A DNA stretch of 13,764 nt from a virus (lineage: Duplodnaviria; Heunggongvirae; Uroviricota; Caudoviricetes). Positions 2,824 to 12,125 of this stretch are shown here, one piece after another. The notes below the pieces were generated by a model, which was given only the letters and a program-made list of their open reading frames with translations, was not told the DNA's origin and did no database searches. A program made the position numbers and the translations under genes. Location: IMG/VR virus record IMGVR_UViG_2541047849_000006; one strand, given 5' to 3'. Numbering within the stretch: position 1 is the stretch's first letter; each line of letters begins with the position of its first letter.

Positions 2824-2979
2824 TTACTCCTCAGGTTCGTAAGCTGTGAAGACAGCGACCTCCGTCTGGCCGGTTCGGATTCGTACCTCGCAGAGGTCTT
2901 TCCTCGTTACCAGTGCCGTCACTATGACGGTTAAACAGATGACGATCAGGGCGATTAACATCGCCTTTTGCTGCTTCAT
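2824..2979 (-). CDS. hokD: Hok-family type I membrane toxin (51 aa), not in the supplied ORF track
   Basis: Manual minus-strand translation gives MKQQKAMLIALIVICLTVIVTALVTRKDLCEVRIRTGQTEVAVFTAYEPEE, a Hok/Gef-family protein (single TM helix plus the conserved LCE.R..G..EVA.F motif). SD 'aggag' upstream; lies directly after relE, as hokD (relF) does. Confidence 0.85.
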   Translation of the reverse strand: MKQQKAMLIALIVICLTVIVTALVTRKDLCEVRIRTGQTEVAVFTAYEPEE

Positions 2980-4480: not shown

Positions 4481-4799
4481 GCCATCAGCCTTTTCTTTAA
4501 AGACATATTATCTTTGTATCATTTCTGATAGTTAACATTACAAGATATAAGTAATGGACGCACTCCCAATTAGTCTATTTAAATCGCCACGAGTTTAACT
4601 GACAACCCATGATCAATTATGAATTGCAACTATTTCTGTAGTCACTTTTGTGGGGACAGTCCACAAAACTGCCAACTTCCGCTTCTTGCTCTTAGCGGAC
4701 ATTAGCATAGGCTATTTACCATAACGCCTCATTACGCGCACCGCCCAGACTGACTCAGCGCGTTTCTGGCATATCCCCGGTAAAACAAGTAACAAACCA

Positions 4800-6260
4800 C
4801 CCGAAAATGAACACCAGAAACGCGACTTAAGAATCTACCCTATGAATGGATATGCACTCAACCGAATCGATCTTGGTTTCAATCTTTTTTATCGGGATCA
4901 GGCTTCTTTTTAGGTAACTTCGGGGGCTTAACTTGCTGATGACTTTGCGTTCGGCGCGTAAGCCAGGGATGGTCAGCTTTAGGTTTAACATAGTATTTTG
5001 AGCGTAAATCAATACGGGCATTATCCACTCGTTCATGGACACTCTTTTCATCATCCAGTGGTATAGGCTCCGGGCCATCAACATACTTTTCCCAGCCCAG
5101 CGCTTTCCCGTCATACAGAACGTTAATTTCACCGTCAAAGTTCTCGCATACAGTAACAACCGAATGCCTAAGTCGATATCCCCGGCCCTCACTGCGTACC
5201 TGAAACGCACTGCTTTTGTACTGGAAAGTGAGATTTTTAGACAGAACGCGCTTCGCCTGTAGGCTGAAGATATAACCCAGTTCCTCTTCAGAATGGTGCA
5301 CATCAAGATGAGCATTATCAGTAGTACGAGGCGACGTAGCGAACCGGTTGTTATAGGCTTCAATAAAGGTCGGCAACCATGCATTTGCTGTTTCAATATC
5401 ACTGATATTCTGAAGCCGCATTTCTTTGACCAGCCTGTCCTGTAGTGTCTGATTGGCGCGCTCTACCCGCCCTTTTGCCTGCGGGCTGTTGGCATGGATT
5501 GGCTCGATGCCCAGTGTCTTTATCGCACGAGTGAACTGGGTCAGCTCACCTTCCCGCTCTGGGTTATTTACCCTGAATATACTGTGTCTATCAGAGTAGA
5601 GAGCGAGCGGTACGCCATGATCATTAAGGTAACCCCGGAGGGTTTCCATGTAAGCCCGGGTTGTTTCAGCAGGCACAAAACGCAACGCCATCAACGCACT
5701 GGTGGCATCATCAATGAAAACGATCAGTGTACATCTGGGGCCTCGATTTTCAAACCAGTCATGAGGTGAGCCATCAATCTGGATCAGTTCACCGTAAGAT
5801 GGTCGTCGCATGCGGCGTTGATATATACGGGCAATTTTACGACGGCGTTCACGCCATAACCCCTCTTCTATCATCCACTTTCTGAGAGTTTCAACGGATA
5901 AAGATAAACCGTGTATCTCGCGCAATTTTTCGCACGCAAACGTAGGTCCAAAATCAGCGTAACGGCCTTTGAGGAGTGAAATTACTGTTGCTCTGAATTC
6001 AGTAGAAAAGGAATTATTAGGACGCTTTCCACGTCGGTGGGAAACCAGACCAGAAGGCCCTTCATTTCTATACCGTTGCACCAGACGTTTAACCTGCCGA
6101 ATAGAAATGCCAATGCGTGCCGCAGCTTGTTCCTGAATAATCTGAAGTCGGTGGAGTTCCTTATGACTCATCGTAACAGTCTCTTTGATCATGAAAAATC
6201 CCCCAGAGAATTGTCTGGGGACATTTTAGAATGGTTCAAAGGGGACATTACAGCTTGGTG
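4800..6260 (-). mobile_element. Insertion sequence carrying a single DDE/rve transposase gene; ends are approximate and terminal inverted repeats were not resolved
   Basis: A 437-aa transposase ORF with short flanks, sitting where K-12 Qin (as recalled) has no such gene. The boundaries are a guess from the ORF limits; I could not identify the IRs or a target-site duplication by eye. Confidence 0.35.
4879..6192 (-). CDS. DDE-type transposase with an N-terminal HTH and an rve (integrase-core) catalytic domain, IS481/ISNCY-like (437 aa)
   Basis: N-terminal HTH-like segment (..IGISIRQVKRLVQRY..); candidate catalytic residues in 'IQIDGSPHDWFE', 'LALYSDRHSIF' and 'ANSPQAKGRVERANQTLQDRL' (D, D, E with a downstream basic residue); basic C-terminal tail. 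SD 'ggggga' 8 nt upstream of the ATG at 6192. Confidence 0.85.
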   Translation of the reverse strand: MIKETVTMSHKELHRLQIIQEQAAARIGISIRQVKRLVQRYRNEGPSGLVSHRRGKRPNNSFSTEFRATVISLLKGRYADFGPTFACEKLREIHGLSLSVETLRKWMIEEGLWRERRRKIARIYQRRMRRPSYGELIQIDGSPHDWFENRGPRCTLIVFIDDATSALMALRFVPAETTRAYMETLRGYLNDHGVPLALYSDRHSIFRVNNPEREGELTQFTRAIKTLGIEPIHANSPQAKGRVERANQTLQDRLVKEMRLQNISDIETANAWLPTFIEAYNNRFATSPRTTDNAHLDVHHSEEELGYIFSLQAKRVLSKNLTFQYKSSAFQVRSEGRGYRLRHSVVTVCENFDGEINVLYDGKALGWEKYVDGPEPIPLDDEKSVHERVDNARIDLRSKYYVKPKADHPWLTRRTQSHQQVKPPKLPKKKPDPDKKD

Positions 6261-6526
6261 TTAACAATAGCCTGCTTCTCCGTGCCTTTCGGCACGTAAG
6301 AGGCTAACCTACATGTGTCTAGCATGAAATTGGCCTCAGATTAATGTTAAGCGTCTTGCAGGACGCGTAATGTTAACTGGGGCTTTTCTCTATCTGCCGT
6401 TGGTGTCCATGCCCGAGGCAGATAGCCTCAAGCACCCGCAGTCATTCTACTTAACTAAGATTTCCCCGCAAACCGTTTTTGTCCAGCACAGTAAATATCC
6501 AACTAAACCAATGGAGTTCGCTGTAT

Positions 6527-6706: not shown

Positions 6707-6960
6707 TATTCCTCCTACAATCAATGTGCAATTACATTTAAACACACCTCAATTTGGCCGGACATATAAATATCTAAACCAGAAAAAATCACTTACATAG
6801 CGTTACAAACTCTTTAGTCTAAAGGTTCATCGTAAAACATTCCCCATACTTATCAGTCCGTTCCGCGCCAGGTAGCTCATTGCCTTATCTGGCAACCTGT
6901 AATCAGGTTTCCGCTTTTTCAGTTGGCTGGTCGTTTAACCGACATAGTTAATCCATTAAT

Positions 6961-7436
6961 CTAGTTGCCGGATGTTGGTGGATTTTCGCGTTTTAGTTGT
7001 TCATAAAAGTGCACAGCTTTAACCAGTTCTTCTGATGTAACTGGGACTGGTGAGGCAGTGAATAAGGCCTGAATTTGATAGTTCGGCCTGTCGTTACAAT
7101 CCTCTTTTTTCGGTACATATTTCCAGTCACCAGACCACTACTTCCCCTGAAAGTCCGTAACGCCTTTTTTCACGTAGCGATATCGCCATGCCACTGGTTT
7201 TGCTTGCCCCGCCGTTTCATGCCCTTCCTGATAATTAATCTCGCTCATTCATCGCCCCACTCATCACAATATGCTTCGACCGGAGTTTTTCCCGCTTCAT
7301 AGTCATCACGCTAGGATTCGACATCAGCAGCACTTCCACCGCGTAACTCACCATAGTCCATTAATAGTTCATCCCGCTCTTCAAAACTGATGTTATATTT
7401 AGCTGAACAAAAATCAGCCACTTTGTTCTTCCTCAT
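6961..7436 (-). pseudogene. Run of short collinear minus-strand ORFs interrupted by in-frame amber codons; probable decayed early gene(s)
   Basis: ORF A (ATG 7436) reads MRKNKVADFCSAKYNISFEERDELLMDYGELRGGSAADVES-TAG(7313..7311)-RDDYEAGKTPVEAYCDEWGDE-TGA. ORF B (ATG 7248, overlapping that TGA as ATGA) reads MSEINYQEGHETAGQAKPVAWRYRYVKKGVTDFQGK-TAG(7140..7138)-WSGDWKYVPKKEDCNDRPNYQIQALFTASPVPVTSEELVKAVHFYEQLKRENPPTSGN-TAG. Confidence 0.35.
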
Positions 7437-7858
7437 CGTCTTTTATTTCGTGGTATGAGTAATTGCAGTAGTTAAAGAAAATTTCTTATGCTCCGTCATG
7501 AATTTCCTCAGGTGTTGCGTCATCGTCCACTTCGAATACATCCTCAAAATCTCCACCAGCTATTCCCGTTTCAATAATAATTTTGAACTTTCGCATTTCA
7601 CTACCGCCCTTTCGGGCGGCCTCCTGATGTTCTGAGGGTGCAGAAATCCATCCGGTTAAGGATTAAATTTTATTTACAGAACTGAATTTAATTATTCAGA
7701 TATACGTATCTGTAGCCTTACGAATCTACTCACTGGATGCCTCTTTCATAAAAATAATCCAGTGGGTTTTATCGTTTTTTCCCTGTTCGTTGACAGATAA
7801 CAGGTTTTCTGTCTGTCAGTGCCAGAATCTGGCTTACCGGTATTTGCGTTTCATTCCA

Positions 7859-8215
7859 TTAAAAAATCAGAACGCCGTGCGGCCTCAACACCCGAAAGGC
7901 TTCTTTAAATCTCTGTCGCGAATCATCACGCCAGGCATCTTTATTCAGCCGTCCATATTTCTTTCCCATCCAGGCGTTATCACCAACACTCTCAAGATGC
8001 GGAGGGTCTAATACAACCATCGAAAAAGATGCGTCTGCAAATGATAATGCACGAAAATCTGCGATAATGTCAGGGCTGATAATCAAGCGTCTCCCATTGC
8101 GTAATGTGTATCCTTCTTTTCTGATATCGCTGAATATCGCCCGTTCGTCAGACTTATCGAACCAGAACATGCGGCTGCCACAGCACATATCAAGAATGGT
8201 TGCCGGTGCACTCAC
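7859..8215 (-). CDS. Small SAM-dependent DNA (N6-adenine/N4-cytosine-type) methyltransferase ORF (118 aa), possibly N-terminally incomplete
   Basis: Motif I-like 'LDMCCGS' (res 8-14) and motif IV 'DPPH' (res 70-73, nt 8008..7997) with RsmD/N6-MTase-like spacing. The start is a GTG at 8215 overlapping the upstream ORF's stop (GTGA); the first in-frame ATG is at residue 10. Confidence 0.6.
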   Translation of the reverse strand: MSAPATILDMCCGSRMFWFDKSDERAIFSDIRKEGYTLRNGRRLIISPDIIADFRALSFADASFSMVVLDPPHLESVGDNAWMGKKYGRLNKDAWRDDSRQRFKEAFRVLRPHGVLIF

Positions 8216-8586
8216 TGCGCCACGTCCTGAAAATTACCCTGATAGAAAGCCAGTATGCGCTGCATAACTTCGCTCTTCCGGCACTCGCGACAGATTATGT
8301 TTAGGCGACTGTCGTAGCGACGTATTTCTCCGTCAGGTGATGACCAGATAAGGTCCGGATCAACCACAGCAGGTTTCTTCACCTTTGCCCTCGAGAGTTT
8401 TTTGCGGGCGTTTTGCCAGTCCTTACGCGCCTGTTCAGAGGGGAATAACCCGTAGCCGGAGTTGTATACATCGCCACTGGCTACCAGCTCTCTGGCAAGA
8501 ACGCTCATCAGATATCTAGTCGCACCTGTTTTAGCTTCCAGTTGCCGTAACGTCTCACGGCCGCTCTGGCGCACGAGTTCCACCAC
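8212..8586 (-). CDS. Hypothetical early protein (124 aa from GTG); possibly the distal part of a ~140-codon gene interrupted by an amber codon
   Basis: The track ORF begins at a GTG immediately after an in-frame TAG (8589..8587). The same frame is open upstream to a GTG at 8634 with SD 'aaggggg' (MAKVFTQEEREKIKW-TAG-VVELVRQSGRETLRQLEAKTG...). Product not recognised. Confidence 0.4.
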   Translation of the reverse strand: MVELVRQSGRETLRQLEAKTGATRYLMSVLARELVASGDVYNSGYGLFPSEQARKDWQNARKKLSRAKVKKPAVVDPDLIWSSPDGEIRRYDSRLNIICRECRKSEVMQRILAFYQGNFQDVAQ

Positions 8587-8674
8587 CTACCATTTAATTT
8601 TTTCCCGCTCTTCTTGTGTAAAAACTTTTGCCACAAGTCCCCCTTAAAATTACCTCATGACCTGAAATCAACAC

Positions 8675-9202
8675 TTATCCTCTGAAACCAGGCGGAATTT
8701 CTGTATCCGGTTCAGAAATATGATTAACACAACGCTGTACAGGTGAACGTCCCAGGCGGATGACCAGTTCGTCCCATTTTTCGCGGAGCTTTGACGGGCT
8801 CATGATGTTTTTTACCCAGAATGGATCTCGCTGAACCCGACCAAACATTTCGCAAATTTGTCTGTGGCTTCTGCCATCCAGCATCCGCATTGTGCGCACG
8901 TCATTGGCCCAGGCAGTCCAGTTAGCCTCCATAATTGCAGGCACTAGCGCCGTGAACTTTTCACGCTTATCCCTGGTGTCGATAGCCTTCCAGCGTTCAA
9001 ATATCTTCACTCGATTAACGCCAAGCGCTCGCTGATCAATCGCGCCACCTTCATATGTGACACGCTGAACATCGATGTTCGGGCGCTCTTTCAAAGCCCA
9101 GAATGCTTCAGTGATTAATATCGTCGCCTGCTCCTGTGTCATTCCTGGTCGACATATCCAGGCATCCAGAGCCTCACGAGCCTGTTCAGGAGTGATTTTC
9201 AT
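8675..9202 (-). CDS. Hypothetical prophage early protein (175 aa), first gene downstream of dicC
   Basis: ATG start at 9202, overlapping the dicC 3' end by 17 nt. Product MKITPEQAREALDAWICRPGMTQEQATILITEAFWALKERPNIDV... not recognised. It occupies the position of the first post-Cro gene in lambdoid early-right operons. Confidence 0.6.
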   Translation of the reverse strand: MKITPEQAREALDAWICRPGMTQEQATILITEAFWALKERPNIDVQRVTYEGGAIDQRALGVNRVKIFERWKAIDTRDKREKFTALVPAIMEANWTAWANDVRTMRMLDGRSHRQICEMFGRVQRDPFWVKNIMSPSKLREKWDELVIRLGRSPVQRCVNHISEPDTEIPPGFRG

Positions 9203-9416
9203 TGTTCAACCGCCCCGCCCGCTTCGTCTTACGATATTCATCATAAACTTTGGGATCATACTGAAGCTCCCCGCCAGATGCCTCCTGTAGACGCATCGCG
9301 CGACCTTCGGGAACTAAATCCCCTTTCCAGCTATAAAGCGAAGCCAAACGAATACCTGCTGCTTGTGCAAGTTTTGTTTTTGAACCGAAATACAAAAGAG
9401 CGTCAGTTTTAAGCAT
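9186..9416 (-). CDS. dicC: DicC, Cro-like regulator of the Qin immunity region (76 aa)
   Basis: Protein MLKTDALLYFGSKTKLAQAAGIRLASLYSWKGDLVPEGRAMRLQEASGGELQYDPKVYDEYRKTKRAGRLNNENHS recognised as DicC; divergent from dicA; SD 'aaggtg' upstream. Confidence 0.85.
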   Translation of the reverse strand: MLKTDALLYFGSKTKLAQAAGIRLASLYSWKGDLVPEGRAMRLQEASGGELQYDPKVYDEYRKTKRAGRLNNENHS

Positions 9417-9499: not shown

Positions 9500-9907
9500 A
9501 TGGAAACAAAAAATTTAACTATCGGCGAACGCATCAGGTATCGTCGGAAAAACCTCAAACACACCCAAAGGTCTCTTGCTAAAGCCCTGAAAATCTCCCA
9601 TGTGTCTGTATCACAATGGGAACGGGGTGATAGTGAACCTACAGGGAAGAACCTTTTTGCCCTCAGCAAAGTATTGCAATGCTCACCAACATGGATTCTA
9701 TTTGGCGATGAAGACAAGCAACCAACACCACCTGTTGAGAAGCCAGTTGCCTTATCCCCCAAAGAACTAGAGCTCCTTGAGCTGTTTAATGCACTGCCAG
9801 AATCAGAACAGGATACCCAGCTCGCCGAAATGCGAGCTCGAGTAAAAAACTTCAATAAACTCTTTGAAGAATTACTAAAAGCCCGTCAGCGGACAAATAA
9901 AAGATAA
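9500..9907 (+). CDS. dicA: DicA, CI/C2-like HTH repressor (135 aa)
   Basis: Protein METKNLTIGERIRYRRKNLKHTQRSLAKALKISHVSVSQWERGDSEPTGKNLFALSKVLQCSPTWILFGDEDK... recognised as DicA (Xre-type HTH). Confidence 0.9.
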   Translation: METKNLTIGERIRYRRKNLKHTQRSLAKALKISHVSVSQWERGDSEPTGKNLFALSKVLQCSPTWILFGDEDKQPTPPVEKPVALSPKELELLELFNALPESEQDTQLAEMRARVKNFNKLFEELLKARQRTNKR

Positions 9908-10079: not shown

Positions 10080-12125
10080 ATGGCAACATTCGACGGACAT
10101 ATCGTTGAAGCGTTGATGAAAATGCCAGAAGTTAACGCCATGTATCCGGAGCTTAAGTTGCACGCCATTGGGTGGGTTAAGCATAAATGTATTCCTGGTG
10201 CTAAATGGCCCGAAATTCAGGCAGAGATGCGCATCTGGAAAAAACGTCGCGAAGGTGAACGCAAGGAAACCGGAAAATACACGTCTGTTGTTGATCTCGC
10301 CCGCGCCAGAGCCAATCAACAGTACACTGAAAATTCAACAGGAAAAATCAGCCCGGTCATTGCTGCCATTCATCGCGAATACAAGCAGACATGGAAAACA
10401 CTGGATGACGAACTGGCCTACGCTCTCTGGCCTAGTGATGTGGATGCCGGAAACATTGACGGCAGCATCCATCGCTGGGCAAAAAAAGAAGTTATCGACA
10501 ACGACCGCGAAGACTGGAAGCGTATCTCGGCATCAATGCGCAAACAGCCTGATGCCCTTCGCTACGACCGCCAAACTATTTTTGGCCTTGTCCGTGAGCG
10601 TCCGATCGACATTCACAAAGATCCCGTAGCACTGAACAAATATATCTGCGAATACCTGACGACAAAGGGCGTGTTTGAGAATGAAGAAACAGACCTGGGC
10701 ACTGTTGATGTTCTCCAGTCATCAGAAACACAAACTGATGCAGTGGAAACTGAGGTATCTGATATCCCAAAAAATGAAACCGCGCCGGAAGCTGAACCAT
10801 CTGTAGAGCGTGAGGGGCCGTTCTATTTCCTCTTCGCAGATAAGGACGGAGAAAAATACGGTCGCGCAAACAAACTCTCTGGTCTGGATAAGGCACTGGC
10901 TGCTGGCGCCACTGAAATCACAAAAGAAGAATATTTTGCCCGAAAAAATGGCACATACACGGGCTTACCGCAAAATGTAGATACCGCTGAAGATTCAGAA
11001 CAACCAGAGCCGATAAAAGTTACCGCTGACGAAGTAAACAAAATTATGCAGGCAGCCAATATCAGCCAGCCTGACGCCGATAAGTTGCTTGCTGCATCAC
11101 GTGGTGAATTTGTTGAAGGGATTAGTGACCCGAATGATCCGAAATGGGTTAAGGGGCTCCAGACCCGCGATTCTGTGAACCAGAACCAGCATGAATCGGA
11201 ACGGAACTACCAAAAAGCGGAACAAAACAGTCCAAATGCGTTACAAAACGAGCCAGAAACGAAACAGCCTGAACCAGTAGCGCAACAGGAAGTGGAAAAA
11301 GTCTGCACCGCCTGCGGTCAGACCGGCGGCGGCAACTGCCATGATTGTGGCGCGGTGATGGGCGACGCAACATACCAAGAAACATTCGATGAAGAGTATC
11401 AGGTTGAAGTTCAGGAAGATGATCCGGAGGAAATGGAAGGCGCTGAACATCCACACAAGGAGAACACTGGCGGCAATCAGCATCACAATAGCGATAATGA
11501 AACTGGCGAGACGGCAGATCACCCAATTAAGGTGAACGGTCATCACGAAATCACATCCACCAGCAGGACGTGTGACCATCTAATGATCGACCTTGAAACC
11601 ATGGGAAAAAATCCTGATGCCCCGATCATCTCAATAGGTGCAATATTTTTCGATCCGCAAACCGGAGATATGGGACCGGAATTTAGTAAGACTATCGATC
11701 TGGAAACTGCTGGCGGAGTCATTGATCGGGACACCATTAAATGGTGGCTTAAGCAATCACGCGAAGCGCAATCTGCCATTATGACCGATGAAATCCCGTT
11801 AGATGATGCACTGTTACAATTGCGAGAATTTATCGACGAAAACTCCGGTGAATTTTTTGTTCAGGTTTGGGGAAATGGAGCCAACTTCGACAACACGATT
11901 TTGCGCCGTTCATACGAACGGCAGGGGATCCCCTGCCCGTGGCGTTACTACAACGATCGCGATGTACGCACAATCGTTGAGCTGGGGAAAGCCATAGACT
12001 TCGATGCCAGAACGGCTATTCCATTCGAAGGTGAGCGCCATAATGCACTTGATGACGCCCGTTACCAGGCAAAATACGTTTCAGTTATCTGGCAAAAACT
12101 GATCCCGAGTCAGGCTGATTCTTAA
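10080..12125 (+). CDS. Large early-left protein: unknown N-terminal domain, acidic low-complexity linker, CxxC..CxxC zinc ribbon, and a C-terminal DnaQ-like (DEDDh) 3'-5' exonuclease domain
   Basis: The track ORF (9996..12125, 709 aa) starts at TTG; the ATG at 10080 with SD 'aggaag' gives 681 aa. Zinc ribbon 'CTACGQTGGGNCHDCG' at ~11304-11352. Exo motifs 'MIDLETMG' (D/E at 11589-11597), 'WGNGANFDNTIL' (D at 11889) and 'HNALDDARY' (H at 12039) place the exonuclease domain at ~11570-12100. Confidence 0.8.
   Translation: MATFDGHIVEALMKMPEVNAMYPELKLHAIGWVKHKCIPGAKWPEIQAEMRIWKKRREGERKETGKYTSVVDLARARANQQYTENSTGKISPVIAAIHREYKQTWKTLDDELAYALWPSDVDAGNIDGSIHRWAKKEVIDNDREDWKRISASMRKQPDALRYDRQTIFGLVRERPIDIHKDPVALNKYICEYLTTKGVFENEETDLGTVDVLQSSETQTDAVETEVSDIPKNETAPEAEPSVEREGPFYFLFADKDGEKYGRANKLSGLDKALAAGATEITKEEYFARKNGTYTGLPQNVDTAEDSEQPEPIKVTADEVNKIMQAANISQPDADKLLAASRGEFVEGISDPNDPKWVKGLQTRDSVNQNQHESERNYQKAEQNSPNALQNEPETKQPEPVAQQEVEKVCTACGQTGGGNCHDCGAVMGDATYQETFDEEYQVEVQEDDPEEMEGAEHPHKENTGGNQHHNSDNETGETADHPIKVNGHHEITSTSRTCDHLMIDLETMGKNPDAPIISIGAIFFDPQTGDMGPEFSKTIDLETAGGVIDRDTIKWWLKQSREAQSAIMTDEIPLDDALLQLREFIDENSGEFFVQVWGNGANFDNTILRRSYERQGIPCPWRYYNDRDVRTIVELGKAIDFDARTAIPFEGERHNALDDARYQAKYVSVIWQKLIPSQADS

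Follow-up and report, generated by a model that had tools for sequence, protein, structure and literature searches.

The Qin (Kim) prophage varies widely in size and content among strains via mutation and deletion (PMC6379469). The literature that we searched for the stop codons described here offered such general accounts of Qin variability (PMC6379469) and nothing specific to these stops. The window, i.e., the whole stretch of 13,764 nucleotides that we analysed, is near-identical in sequence to the longer form of Qin, as found in ATCC 8739, W, and C, and shares its gene order. Both run from dicA and dicC through a CII/YdaT-like gene, an O-like gene, a DUF977 gene, a methyltransferase gene, a DUF7167 gene, and two small genes, and continue with an ISNCY transposase remnant, ydfW, flxA, ydfV, relBE, hokD, rem, and ydfU, while the exonuclease, excisionase, and integrase genes lie on the opposite side. 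BLAST and a comparison of annotations gave 99.6-99.7% nucleotide identity and an equal gene order for the window and the ATCC 8739 prophage, which is of the Qin type. The annotated prophage of FORC_082 is likewise colinear with the window at 99.6-99.7% identity, and the nearest clade comprises FORC_082, B-JRPT-4119, and O15_8X. Over its entire length, the window is colinear with none of the complete E. coli genomes.

The Qin marker genes dicA/dicC, relBE, hokD, and flxA are all present in the window. On one side of the dicA/dicC immunity region lie relBE, hokD, flxA, ydfU, and ydfT, and on the other the exonuclease, excisionase, and integrase genes. Qin-type prophages are inserted in the chromosome beside rspB / ynfA; the end of the window falls inside the integrase gene, which adjoins rspB in the near-identical FORC_082 and NCCP12480 copies. 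As judged from its sequence, the window is thus a Qin-like cryptic lambdoid prophage of E. coli. The lesions found in the methyltransferase and DUF7167 genes and in the two small genes that follow, hereafter ORF1 and ORF2, are identical in the longer form of Qin and in the window. The window copy differs from the longer form by an amber codon in the DUF977 gene (4 genomes), a deletion of ~2 kb from ydfA to ydfD (3 genomes), and a unique deletion of 940 bp.

The related lambdoid prophages of H1827/12, WP3-W18-CRE-03, and strain 10153 exhibit DUF7167, the 58-aa gene (ORF1), and the ORF2 position in the same order as the window, with the same overlapping start/stop junctions, at 89-93% identity. 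Unlike in the window, the DUF7167 and 58-aa genes are undamaged in these three prophages, and among them an intact ORF2 (171 aa) is found only in H1827/12. Their methyltransferase slot holds a 118-aa gene. We considered these 118-aa genes as truncated methyltransferases and rejected the assignment, since they are unrelated (MEIKPEDELS...). The occupation of this slot by an unrelated gene in the relatives examined explains why only Qin copies show the methyltransferase lesions.

The initial annotation had flagged three in-frame TAG codons on the minus strand (ambers 1, 2, and 3 in Table 1), each splitting a frame open on both sides, and had read them as nonsense mutations in once-contiguous, translationally coupled genes of a cryptic Qin-like prophage. 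The three codons and the open frames on both sides of them are present, as are the overlaps between starts and stops, namely GTGA at 8215..8212 (DUF977 stop and methyltransferase start) and ATGA at 7248..7245 (ORF1 stop and ORF2 start). We judged whether the split frames are real genes by homology and not by ORF statistics, and the comparisons agree with contiguous, coupled genes, with full-length homologues spanning each TAG. Intact homologues and the match to ATCC 8739 also support pseudogenisation in a Qin-like prophage. The earlier inventory of lesions was incomplete: the same run contains a fourth amber, two ochres, a +1 frameshift, and deletions of 90 and 4 nt.

Table 1. Damaged genes of the run and their lesions (positions are those of the window).
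Feature	Position	Strand	Remarks
In-frame fusion, YdaT/CII-like + replication-O-like	8675..9202	-	First ~83-92 codons + last ~83-92 codons
DUF977/Ren-like (PHROG 142) gene, 140 codons	8212..8634	-	GTG start 8634..8632, TGA stop 8214..8212
Amber 1, CAG (Gln16) to TAG, C to T transition	8587..8589	-	Codon 16 of DUF977 gene
Small phage DNA methyltransferase pseudogene, ~160 codons when repaired	7726..8215	-	Original stop TAG 7728..7726
Ochre in methyltransferase, AAA (Lys119) to TAA	7859..7861	-	AAA in homologue
+1 frameshift in methyltransferase, one extra A	A-run 7780..7775	-	A removal restores frame
DUF7167 pseudogene, 60 codons	7414..7596	-	Pfam PF23768 residues 2-53, E = 3e-13
Ochre in DUF7167, AAA (Lys37) to TAA	7486..7488	-	AAA codon 37 in intact 60-aa homologues
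ORF1, 58-codon gene, PHROG 519	7245..7421	-	Start GTG 7421 or possibly ATG 7436
Amber 2, TGG (Trp) to TAG, G to A transition	7311..7313	-	TGG in 4/4 intact homologues examined
ORF2, pseudogene of 171-aa prophage protein, PHROG 660	6827..7248	-	Original stop TGA 6829..6827
Amber 3, TAG at ORF2 codon 37	7138..7140	-	Sense codon in intact 171-aa homologues
90-nt in-frame deletion, ORF2	Junction about 6977/6976	-	At AATCCAC repeat
Amber 4, CAG (Gln) to TAG	6961..6963	-	CAG in intact H1827/12 gene
4-nt deletion, ORF2	Junction 6930/6929	-	Alignment to intact homologue

Positions, homologues, aligned ancestral codons, and allele frequencies were all obtained directly. Intact homologues carry a sense codon at every premature stop (8589, 7313, 7140, 6963, 7861, and 7488). 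In the alignments to Qin-like and lambdoid relatives, the three flagged TAGs face CAG (8589), TGG (7313), and a variable residue (7140). Stops also fall inside family profiles, at codon 16 for DUF977, codon 37 for DUF7167, and codon 119 for PHROG 954 (residues 4-161). PGAP calls a 124-aa DUF977 protein after the TAG at 8589 and a 118-aa methyltransferase ending at the TAA at 7861 as ordinary genes, which is what would be expected if the stops were genuine terminators of separate short genes and the flanking frames were independent small ORFs. Nevertheless, full-length homologues with sense codons and profile matches cross every stop, and the sequence behind each stop keeps the frame and the residues of the homologue. 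These alignments refute the reading as separate genes, which is extremely improbable; none of the three flagged TAGs was found to end a genuine short gene or to lack a homologue across it. Sequencing or assembly errors in the window have a negligible probability as the source of the stops, an explanation refuted by the presence of the same alleles in 4, 496, and 880 independent complete genomes.

The DUF977 gene matches Pfam PF06163 over residues 2-136, across the TAG (E = 5.4e-28; profile positions 2-134 covered), and PHROG 142, 'Ren-like exclusion protein' (E = 4.2e-47). ATCC 8739 has an undamaged 140-aa protein, WP_001151262.1, annotated at the corresponding position, and a G on the plus strand where base 8589 of the window is A. 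The 61-mer around this allele is found exactly in only 4 of the 934 genomes bearing the locus, and 925 of them are one base off. Going by this distribution, amber 1 is a recent and rare allele. The death of the gene is not proven, as a 124-aa product could be made from the GTG right behind the TAG. A restart at GTG 8586..8584 that yields a functional protein minus 16 N-terminal residues is conceivable for this gene only, although we consider it rather unlikely. A GTG GTG pair sits directly behind the codon-16 TAG, the 124-aa restart protein (WP_000229985.1) is called by PGAP from the first GTG after amber 1 in two carrier strains, and the GTGA coupling to the methyltransferase start, downstream of the TAG, is still intact. 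In contrast, the Pfam model begins at residue 2, so the restart product misses part of the conserved domain, and the amber allele belongs to a clade that is losing neighbouring genes via deletion.

In the methyltransferase pseudogene, taking out one A restores the frame, which then ends in ...GKNDKTHWIIFMKEASSE and the stop. The repaired translation is 71% identical to the 156-aa methyltransferase of Erwinia phage vB_EhrS_49 over residues 5-156, and the phage gene exhibits AAA at the position of the ochre in the window. Its residues 4-161 match PHROG 954 (E = 6e-80).

The acidic 36-aa ORF at 7596..7486, previously listed as a further ORF, comprises the first 36 codons of the 60-codon DUF7167 pseudogene; the DUF7167 profile is matched over 1-60, across codon 37. 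In ATCC 8739 and FORC_082, this gene already bears the PGAP label 'DUF7167 family protein, internal stop', and pseudogene marks on both DUF7167 and ORF2 are present in the PGAP annotations of ATCC 8739, FORC_082, and NCCP12480.

ORF1 shares 8 nt (GTGGCTGA) with the DUF7167 stop and an ATGA with the ORF2 start. It matches PHROG 519 (E = 4.5e-23), and four other prophages have annotated 58-aa homologues that are intact (WP_000753060/64/69 and WP_187703275). The 58-aa remnant carries no annotation in ATCC 8739, FORC_082, and NCCP12480, nor in 30 of 30 Qin copies among the matches listed. The 61-mer around amber 2 is exact in 496 of the 506 genomes holding it; on these counts, the allele is nearly fixed in the Qin lineage.

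ORF2 could be aligned with its intact 171-aa counterpart in strain H1827/12 (L004), and the intact homologue matches PHROG 660 (E = 1.7e-73). The downstream frame of ORF2 could be recovered as ...KKRKPDYRLPDKAMSYLARNGLISMGNVLR followed by the stop; in ATCC 8739 the gene carries the PGAP label 'hypothetical protein; frameshifted; internal stop'. The N-terminus, MSEINYQ, resembles that of an ead/Ea22-like gene (MSEIDYQ) which occupies the corresponding position of another prophage. The TAG at 6963..6961 had been taken as the natural end of ORF2. We rejected this end, as the codon is a premature amber relative to CAG in the intact gene; a Gln occupies this site in 38 of the 38 homologues with the ...SSNQVGELTM motif.

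The ancestry of amber 3 is less readily apparent. The residues that face it in intact homologues are P, M, Q, S, L, A, R, or W, and this column has the highest entropy of the first 95 residues (2.42 bits). At least eight amino acids occur at codon 37, each of which can be encoded by an NNG codon, and the neighbouring codons 33, 35, and 39 are variable as well. The 61-mer around amber 3 is exact in 880 of 1161 genomes, including non-Qin relatives such as L002, and the TAG allele is thus widespread, in at least 880 genomes and two prophage lineages. In nucleotide alignments, every close relative compared already carries TAG. The codon of H1827/12, which is ~91% identical in this region, is CCG and would need two changes to become TAG, whereas codons for Q and W fit a single transition. 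The variability of the homologues may therefore leave several candidates for the ancestral codon. Of the transitions proposed earlier, CAG to TAG at 8589..8587 and TGG to TAG at 7313..7311 are borne out; at 7140..7138 the homologues have a sense codon whose residue is hypervariable, Q and W being compatible with one transition, with several candidate source codons.

The initial annotation had found it striking that all internal stops are amber. This pattern resulted from the incomplete inventory, which missed two ochres, one of them closing the supposed 36-aa ORF; the premature stops of the run amount to 4 TAG, 2 TAA, and 0 TGA. We enumerated all single-base routes to a stop in the five genes as a model of chance, which put the TAG share to be expected at 0.31-0.47, the value varying with the transition bias. 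The probability of 3 ambers out of 3 is then 0.03-0.10, and that of at least 4 out of 6 is 0.075-0.29. The amber skew is mild and non-significant, and the bias is a sampling effect, because a single transition turns CAG or TGG, both common codons, into TAG.

In some gut phages, crAss-like ones among them, TAG is recoded as an amino acid by phage-encoded suppressor tRNAs, and the window resembles these phages in having several in-frame TAGs inside genes with full-length homologues. In contrast to these phages, the window has no suppressor tRNA (ARAGORN found no tRNA genes in it) and exhibits in-frame TAAs and frameshifts in the same genes, its aligned positions are ordinary Gln, Trp, or Lys codons in near-identical relatives, and TAG still acts as a terminator, being the natural end of the methyltransferase frame. 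The likeness to TAG recoding is superficial only.

Suppression by a host tRNA or leaky termination, with the genes remaining functional and the amber bias reflecting tolerance, would fit the four ambers among six premature stops and the persistence of the ORF1 amber (496 of 506 Qin copies) and of the ORF2 amber (at least 880 genomes). Nevertheless, the skew is not significant, and neutral lesions in a vertically inherited prophage are expected to persist anyway. The stops are not confined to ambers in otherwise intact genes: the 4-nt frameshift and the 90-nt deletion of ORF2, together with the ochres and the +1 frameshift of its neighbours, are beyond repair by an amber suppressor, whose action could restore no more than two of the five damaged genes. 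Of 5424 E. coli genomes, just 155 have the supE-type glnV allele, and all 60 of 60 among the matches listed are K-12 laboratory derivatives. The only RNA element found by an Rfam scan for elements that might explain the stops was the sok antitoxin RNA, which lies outside the run (6266..6437). We therefore regard readthrough as very improbable. It is just as doubtful that the ORF2 gene takes part in host or phage interaction and has in the amber a reversible 'off' allele, with codon 37 encoding a fast-turnover, possibly diversifying surface residue. If this were so, the excess of ambers (4 of 6) could stem from leaky termination that is tolerated or from earlier hosts carrying a suppressor.

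A 13-nt imperfect repeat (8917..8929) was the site of the 940-bp deletion that made the fusion upstream of the DUF977 gene, as revealed by BLAST to ATCC 8739. The fused frame matches PHROG 163 (CII-like) weakly over 1-153 and PHROG 391 (O-like) over residues 84-175. The deletion junction was found in 0 of 5426 genomes, and the CII-like/O-like fusion belongs to the same decay. The ~2-kb deletion takes out ydfA to ydfD, including dicF/dicB, and its junction is common to exactly 3 of the 4 strains with the DUF977 amber.

Based on these observations, the locus very probably reflects the ordinary stepwise decay of a Qin-type prophage that is no longer under selection; both the lack of selection and the succession of events are inferred. 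The operon concerned, the early-right one that lies downstream of the cro-like dicC, would have been destroyed stepwise by ordinary mutations, each flagged TAG representing one nonsense mutation in a gene of which related prophages have intact versions. We derived the order of events from the breadth of sharing of each lesion. The ORF2 lesions probably came first, because they are common to a prophage lineage that is only about 93% identical. The ORF1 amber and the DUF7167 ochre, each present in the Qin copies examined, would have followed. The DUF977 amber and the deletion from ydfA through dicB/ydfD probably arose later, in a small clade comprising 3-4 of the strains sequenced, and the 940-bp deletion, seen only in the window, would be the last event. 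As Qin copies are >99% identical, they offer too few substitutions for dN/dS; the additional frameshift and deletions in the same genes point in the same direction as a loss of purifying selection.

Apart from annotation hygiene, the present case is of little consequence. Two proteins called by PGAP, the 124-aa DUF977 protein and the 118-aa "class I SAM-dependent methyltransferase", are truncated remnants according to the alignments. The nested lesions, which run from those shared across prophage lineages to those of the Qin copies examined, of a clade of 3-4 strains, and of the window alone, illustrate clearly how a prophage decays step by step within one species, and they could act as lineage markers.

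The sequence of the 13.8-kb window identifies it as a cryptic lambdoid prophage of the Qin type from Escherichia coli, and it aligns with the annotated prophage of strain ATCC 8739 (NC_010468) in three colinear blocks at 99.6-99.7% identity. The flagged stretch lies on the minus strand, downstream of dicC. The three in-frame TAGs reported in the initial annotation (ambers 1, 2 and 3) occupy exactly the claimed positions, each in a frame open on both sides, and the overlapping start/stop junctions described there are real. Alignment with related prophages, the check then proposed, places sense codons at all three stops, which supports the reading that once-coupled genes of a cryptic Qin-like prophage were turned into pseudogenes by nonsense mutations. 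The inventory of stops was nevertheless incomplete, as a fourth amber, two ochres, a frameshift and deletions had been missed. Compared with ATCC 8739, the window also lacks 25 bp at 4521, near ydfW/flxA, and 6 bp at 10305, inside the exonuclease gene. The dicA gene is intact in the window and annotated as frameshifted in strain FORC_082.

Features and lesions of the flagged region and its surroundings, in minus-strand order
Feature	Coordinates	Strand	Description
~2-kb deletion junction	~10043/10044	+	
dicA	9500..9907		
dicC	9416..9186	-	cro-like; upstream neighbour of flagged stretch
YdaT/CII-like gene		-	gene 1 after dicC
Replication-O-like gene		-	gene 2
Chimera	8675..9202	-	YdaT/CII-like N-terminus, replication-O-like C-terminus; in frame, 175 aa; 940-bp deletion
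Imperfect repeat	8917..8929		13 nt; site of 940-bp deletion
DUF977 gene		-	gene 3; "Ren-like", PHROG 142
Amber 1	8589..8587	-	CAG (Gln16) to TAG, C-to-T transition
DUF977 fragment	8212..8586	-	124 aa, WP_000229985.1
GTGA	8215..8212	-	DUF977/methyltransferase junction
Small DNA methyltransferase gene		-	gene 4
Methyltransferase fragment	7859..8215	-	118 aa, WP_001310834.1
Methyltransferase ochre	7861..7859	-	AAA to TAA
A run	7780..7775		one surplus A in methyltransferase
AGGAGG motif	7625..7620	-	
Hairpin	7619..7604	-	CCGCCC-GAAA-GGGCGG; region 7626..7594
DUF7167 gene		-	gene 5; 60 codons, start codon 7596
DUF7167 remnant	7596..7486	-	first 36 codons
DUF7167 ochre	7488..7486	-	AAA to TAA
GTGGCTGA	7421..7414	-	8-nt DUF7167/ORF1 overlap
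ORF1		-	gene 6; 58 codons, PHROG 519, function not assigned
Amber 2	7313..7311	-	TGG (Trp) to TAG, G-to-A transition
ATGA	7248..7245	-	ORF1/ORF2 junction
ORF2		-	gene 7; PHROG 660, 171 aa when intact
Amber 3	7140..7138	-	
ORF2 90-nt deletion	about 6977/6976		in frame, between AATCCAC repeats
Amber 4	6963..6961	-	apparent ORF2 end
ORF2 4-nt deletion	6930/6929		true C-terminus then in another frame
TGA	6829..6827		end of true ORF2 C-terminus
Beyond ORF2			ISNCY transposase remnant, then ydfW, flxA, ydfV, relBE, hokD
sok antitoxin RNA	6266..6437	-	complete; Rfam, 104 bits
ISNCY transposase ORF	4879..6192	-	in place of hok after sok
hokD	2824..2979		intact; separate from orphan sok

Within the DUF977 gene, base 8589 is the sole difference from ATCC 8739, in which an intact 140-aa protein is annotated, and amber 1 falls within the match to the Pfam DUF977 model, which extends over residues 2-136. 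A 61-base probe with the codon at its centre matched exactly in only 4 of the 934 genomes holding the locus (FORC_082, NCCP12480, B-JRPT-4119 and O15_8X), while 925 differed by one base. In the carriers, PGAP annotates a protein starting at the GTG directly after the TAG, entered as an ordinary protein and not as a pseudogene. At the ORF1 position, related prophages of about 89-93% identity exhibit an intact 58-aa gene, with TGG at amber 2 in all four intact homologues examined. Amber 2 is nearly fixed in the Qin lineage (exact 61-mer in 496 of 506 genomes), where the ORF1 remnant carries no annotation.

When both the ochre and the surplus A of the methyltransferase are repaired, residues 5-156 align at 71% identity with a methyltransferase of 156 aa from Erwinia phage vB_EhrS_49, and PHROG 954 matches over residues 4-161. 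PGAP enters the fragment as an ordinary protein, not a pseudogene. The 36-aa acidic ORF previously listed is the DUF7167 remnant left by the second ochre. Between the AGGAGG motif and the DUF7167 start codon lies a tight hairpin with a GC stem and a GAAA loop, whose local fold z-score is just -1.9. In the relatives examined, translations of the upstream flank finish in similar residues (ARKGG/PERAVV), which suggests that the element is conserved. The hairpin may draw a distant Shine-Dalgarno near the start, or serve as a processing or stability element.

PGAP labels ORF2 as "frameshifted; internal stop". Amber 3 aligns with CCG (Pro) in the intact 171-aa homologue of strain H1827/12, and the 64 of 120 database homologues (P0001-P0120) that have the surrounding motif exhibit P (29), M (12), Q (11), S (5), L (3), A (2), R (1) and W (1). 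As homologues sharing its local context have W (…FQGKWWSGDW) or Q, the CAG/TGG-to-TAG transitions proposed earlier, which hold for ambers 1 and 2, are plausible but not proven for amber 3. This is the most widespread TAG allele, with an exact 61-mer in 880 genomes; it was also present in all three genomes fetched from 279 with one mismatch, and some of its carriers belong to prophage lineages that retain intact ORF1 and DUF7167. The TAG at the apparent end of ORF2 corresponds to CAG (Gln), a residue kept in 38 of 38 motif-bearing homologues, which by alignment makes it a fourth premature amber.

The hypervariability of ORF2 codon 37 is the one residual curiosity of the region: it is the most variable column in the first 95 residues (2.42 bits versus 1.74 for the runner-up). 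In intact homologues positions 33, 35 and 39 vary too, and this alternation could reflect an exposed strand under diversifying selection. The DUF7167 ochre, amber 2 and amber 3 each fall on codon 37 of consecutive genes, at spacings of 175 and 173 nt, with ORF1 counted from GTG 7421. This is probably a coincidence; it varies with where ORF1 is taken to start, and no mechanism is apparent.

Further downstream, homology with hok/sok-bearing relatives stops at 6267, the expected site of the hok start codon. The sok/mok leader thus looks orphaned, with the hok toxin displaced.

The exclusive use of amber had been considered striking, but the full tally of premature stops is four TAG, two TAA and no TGA. 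We enumerated all single-base routes to a stop in the five genes with premature stops, under mutation models of our own assumption from uniform through transitions-only. The expected TAG share was 0.31-0.47, and the chance probability was 0.03-0.10 for three of three ambers and 0.075-0.29 for at least four of six. Both CAG and TGG are in common use as codons, and a single transition turns either into TAG. The amber excess is within chance, and the pattern was spotted after the fact. If the TAGs were instead suppressed or recoded, an amber suppressor could not mend the ochres, frameshift and deletions, so that at most DUF977 and ORF1 would be rescuable; moreover, the window holds no tRNA gene, and the methyltransferase frame itself naturally ends in TAG. 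A supE-type glnV allele was found in 155 of 5424 E. coli genomes; the 60 among these matches that were listed are without exception K-12 laboratory derivatives.

The order of the pseudogenisation was inferred from nested sharing of lesions. Those of ORF2 would be the oldest, since the same TAGs and deletions occur in a lineage whose identity is only about 93.6%. The ORF1 amber and DUF7167 ochre, both found in the directly compared Qin copies, would follow. The methyltransferase lesions occur in Qin copies only, and their timing is less clear because the relatives examined hold an unrelated gene there. The DUF977 amber would come third, in a small clade also sharing a ~2-kb deletion which, relative to ATCC 8739, removes ydfA, ydfB, ydfC, the dicF region, dicB, ydfD and the exonuclease 5' end. 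Exactly three genomes (FORC_082, B-JRPT-4119 and O15_8X) carry its junction, and all three carry the DUF977 amber. The 940-bp deletion, particular to the window, would be the last step; its junction was found in none of the 5426 complete E. coli genomes searched. Qin has been described as highly variable by mutation and deletion (PMC6379469), with which the decay pattern in the window agrees. The decay in this region is ordinary, largely annotated already, and of low interest.
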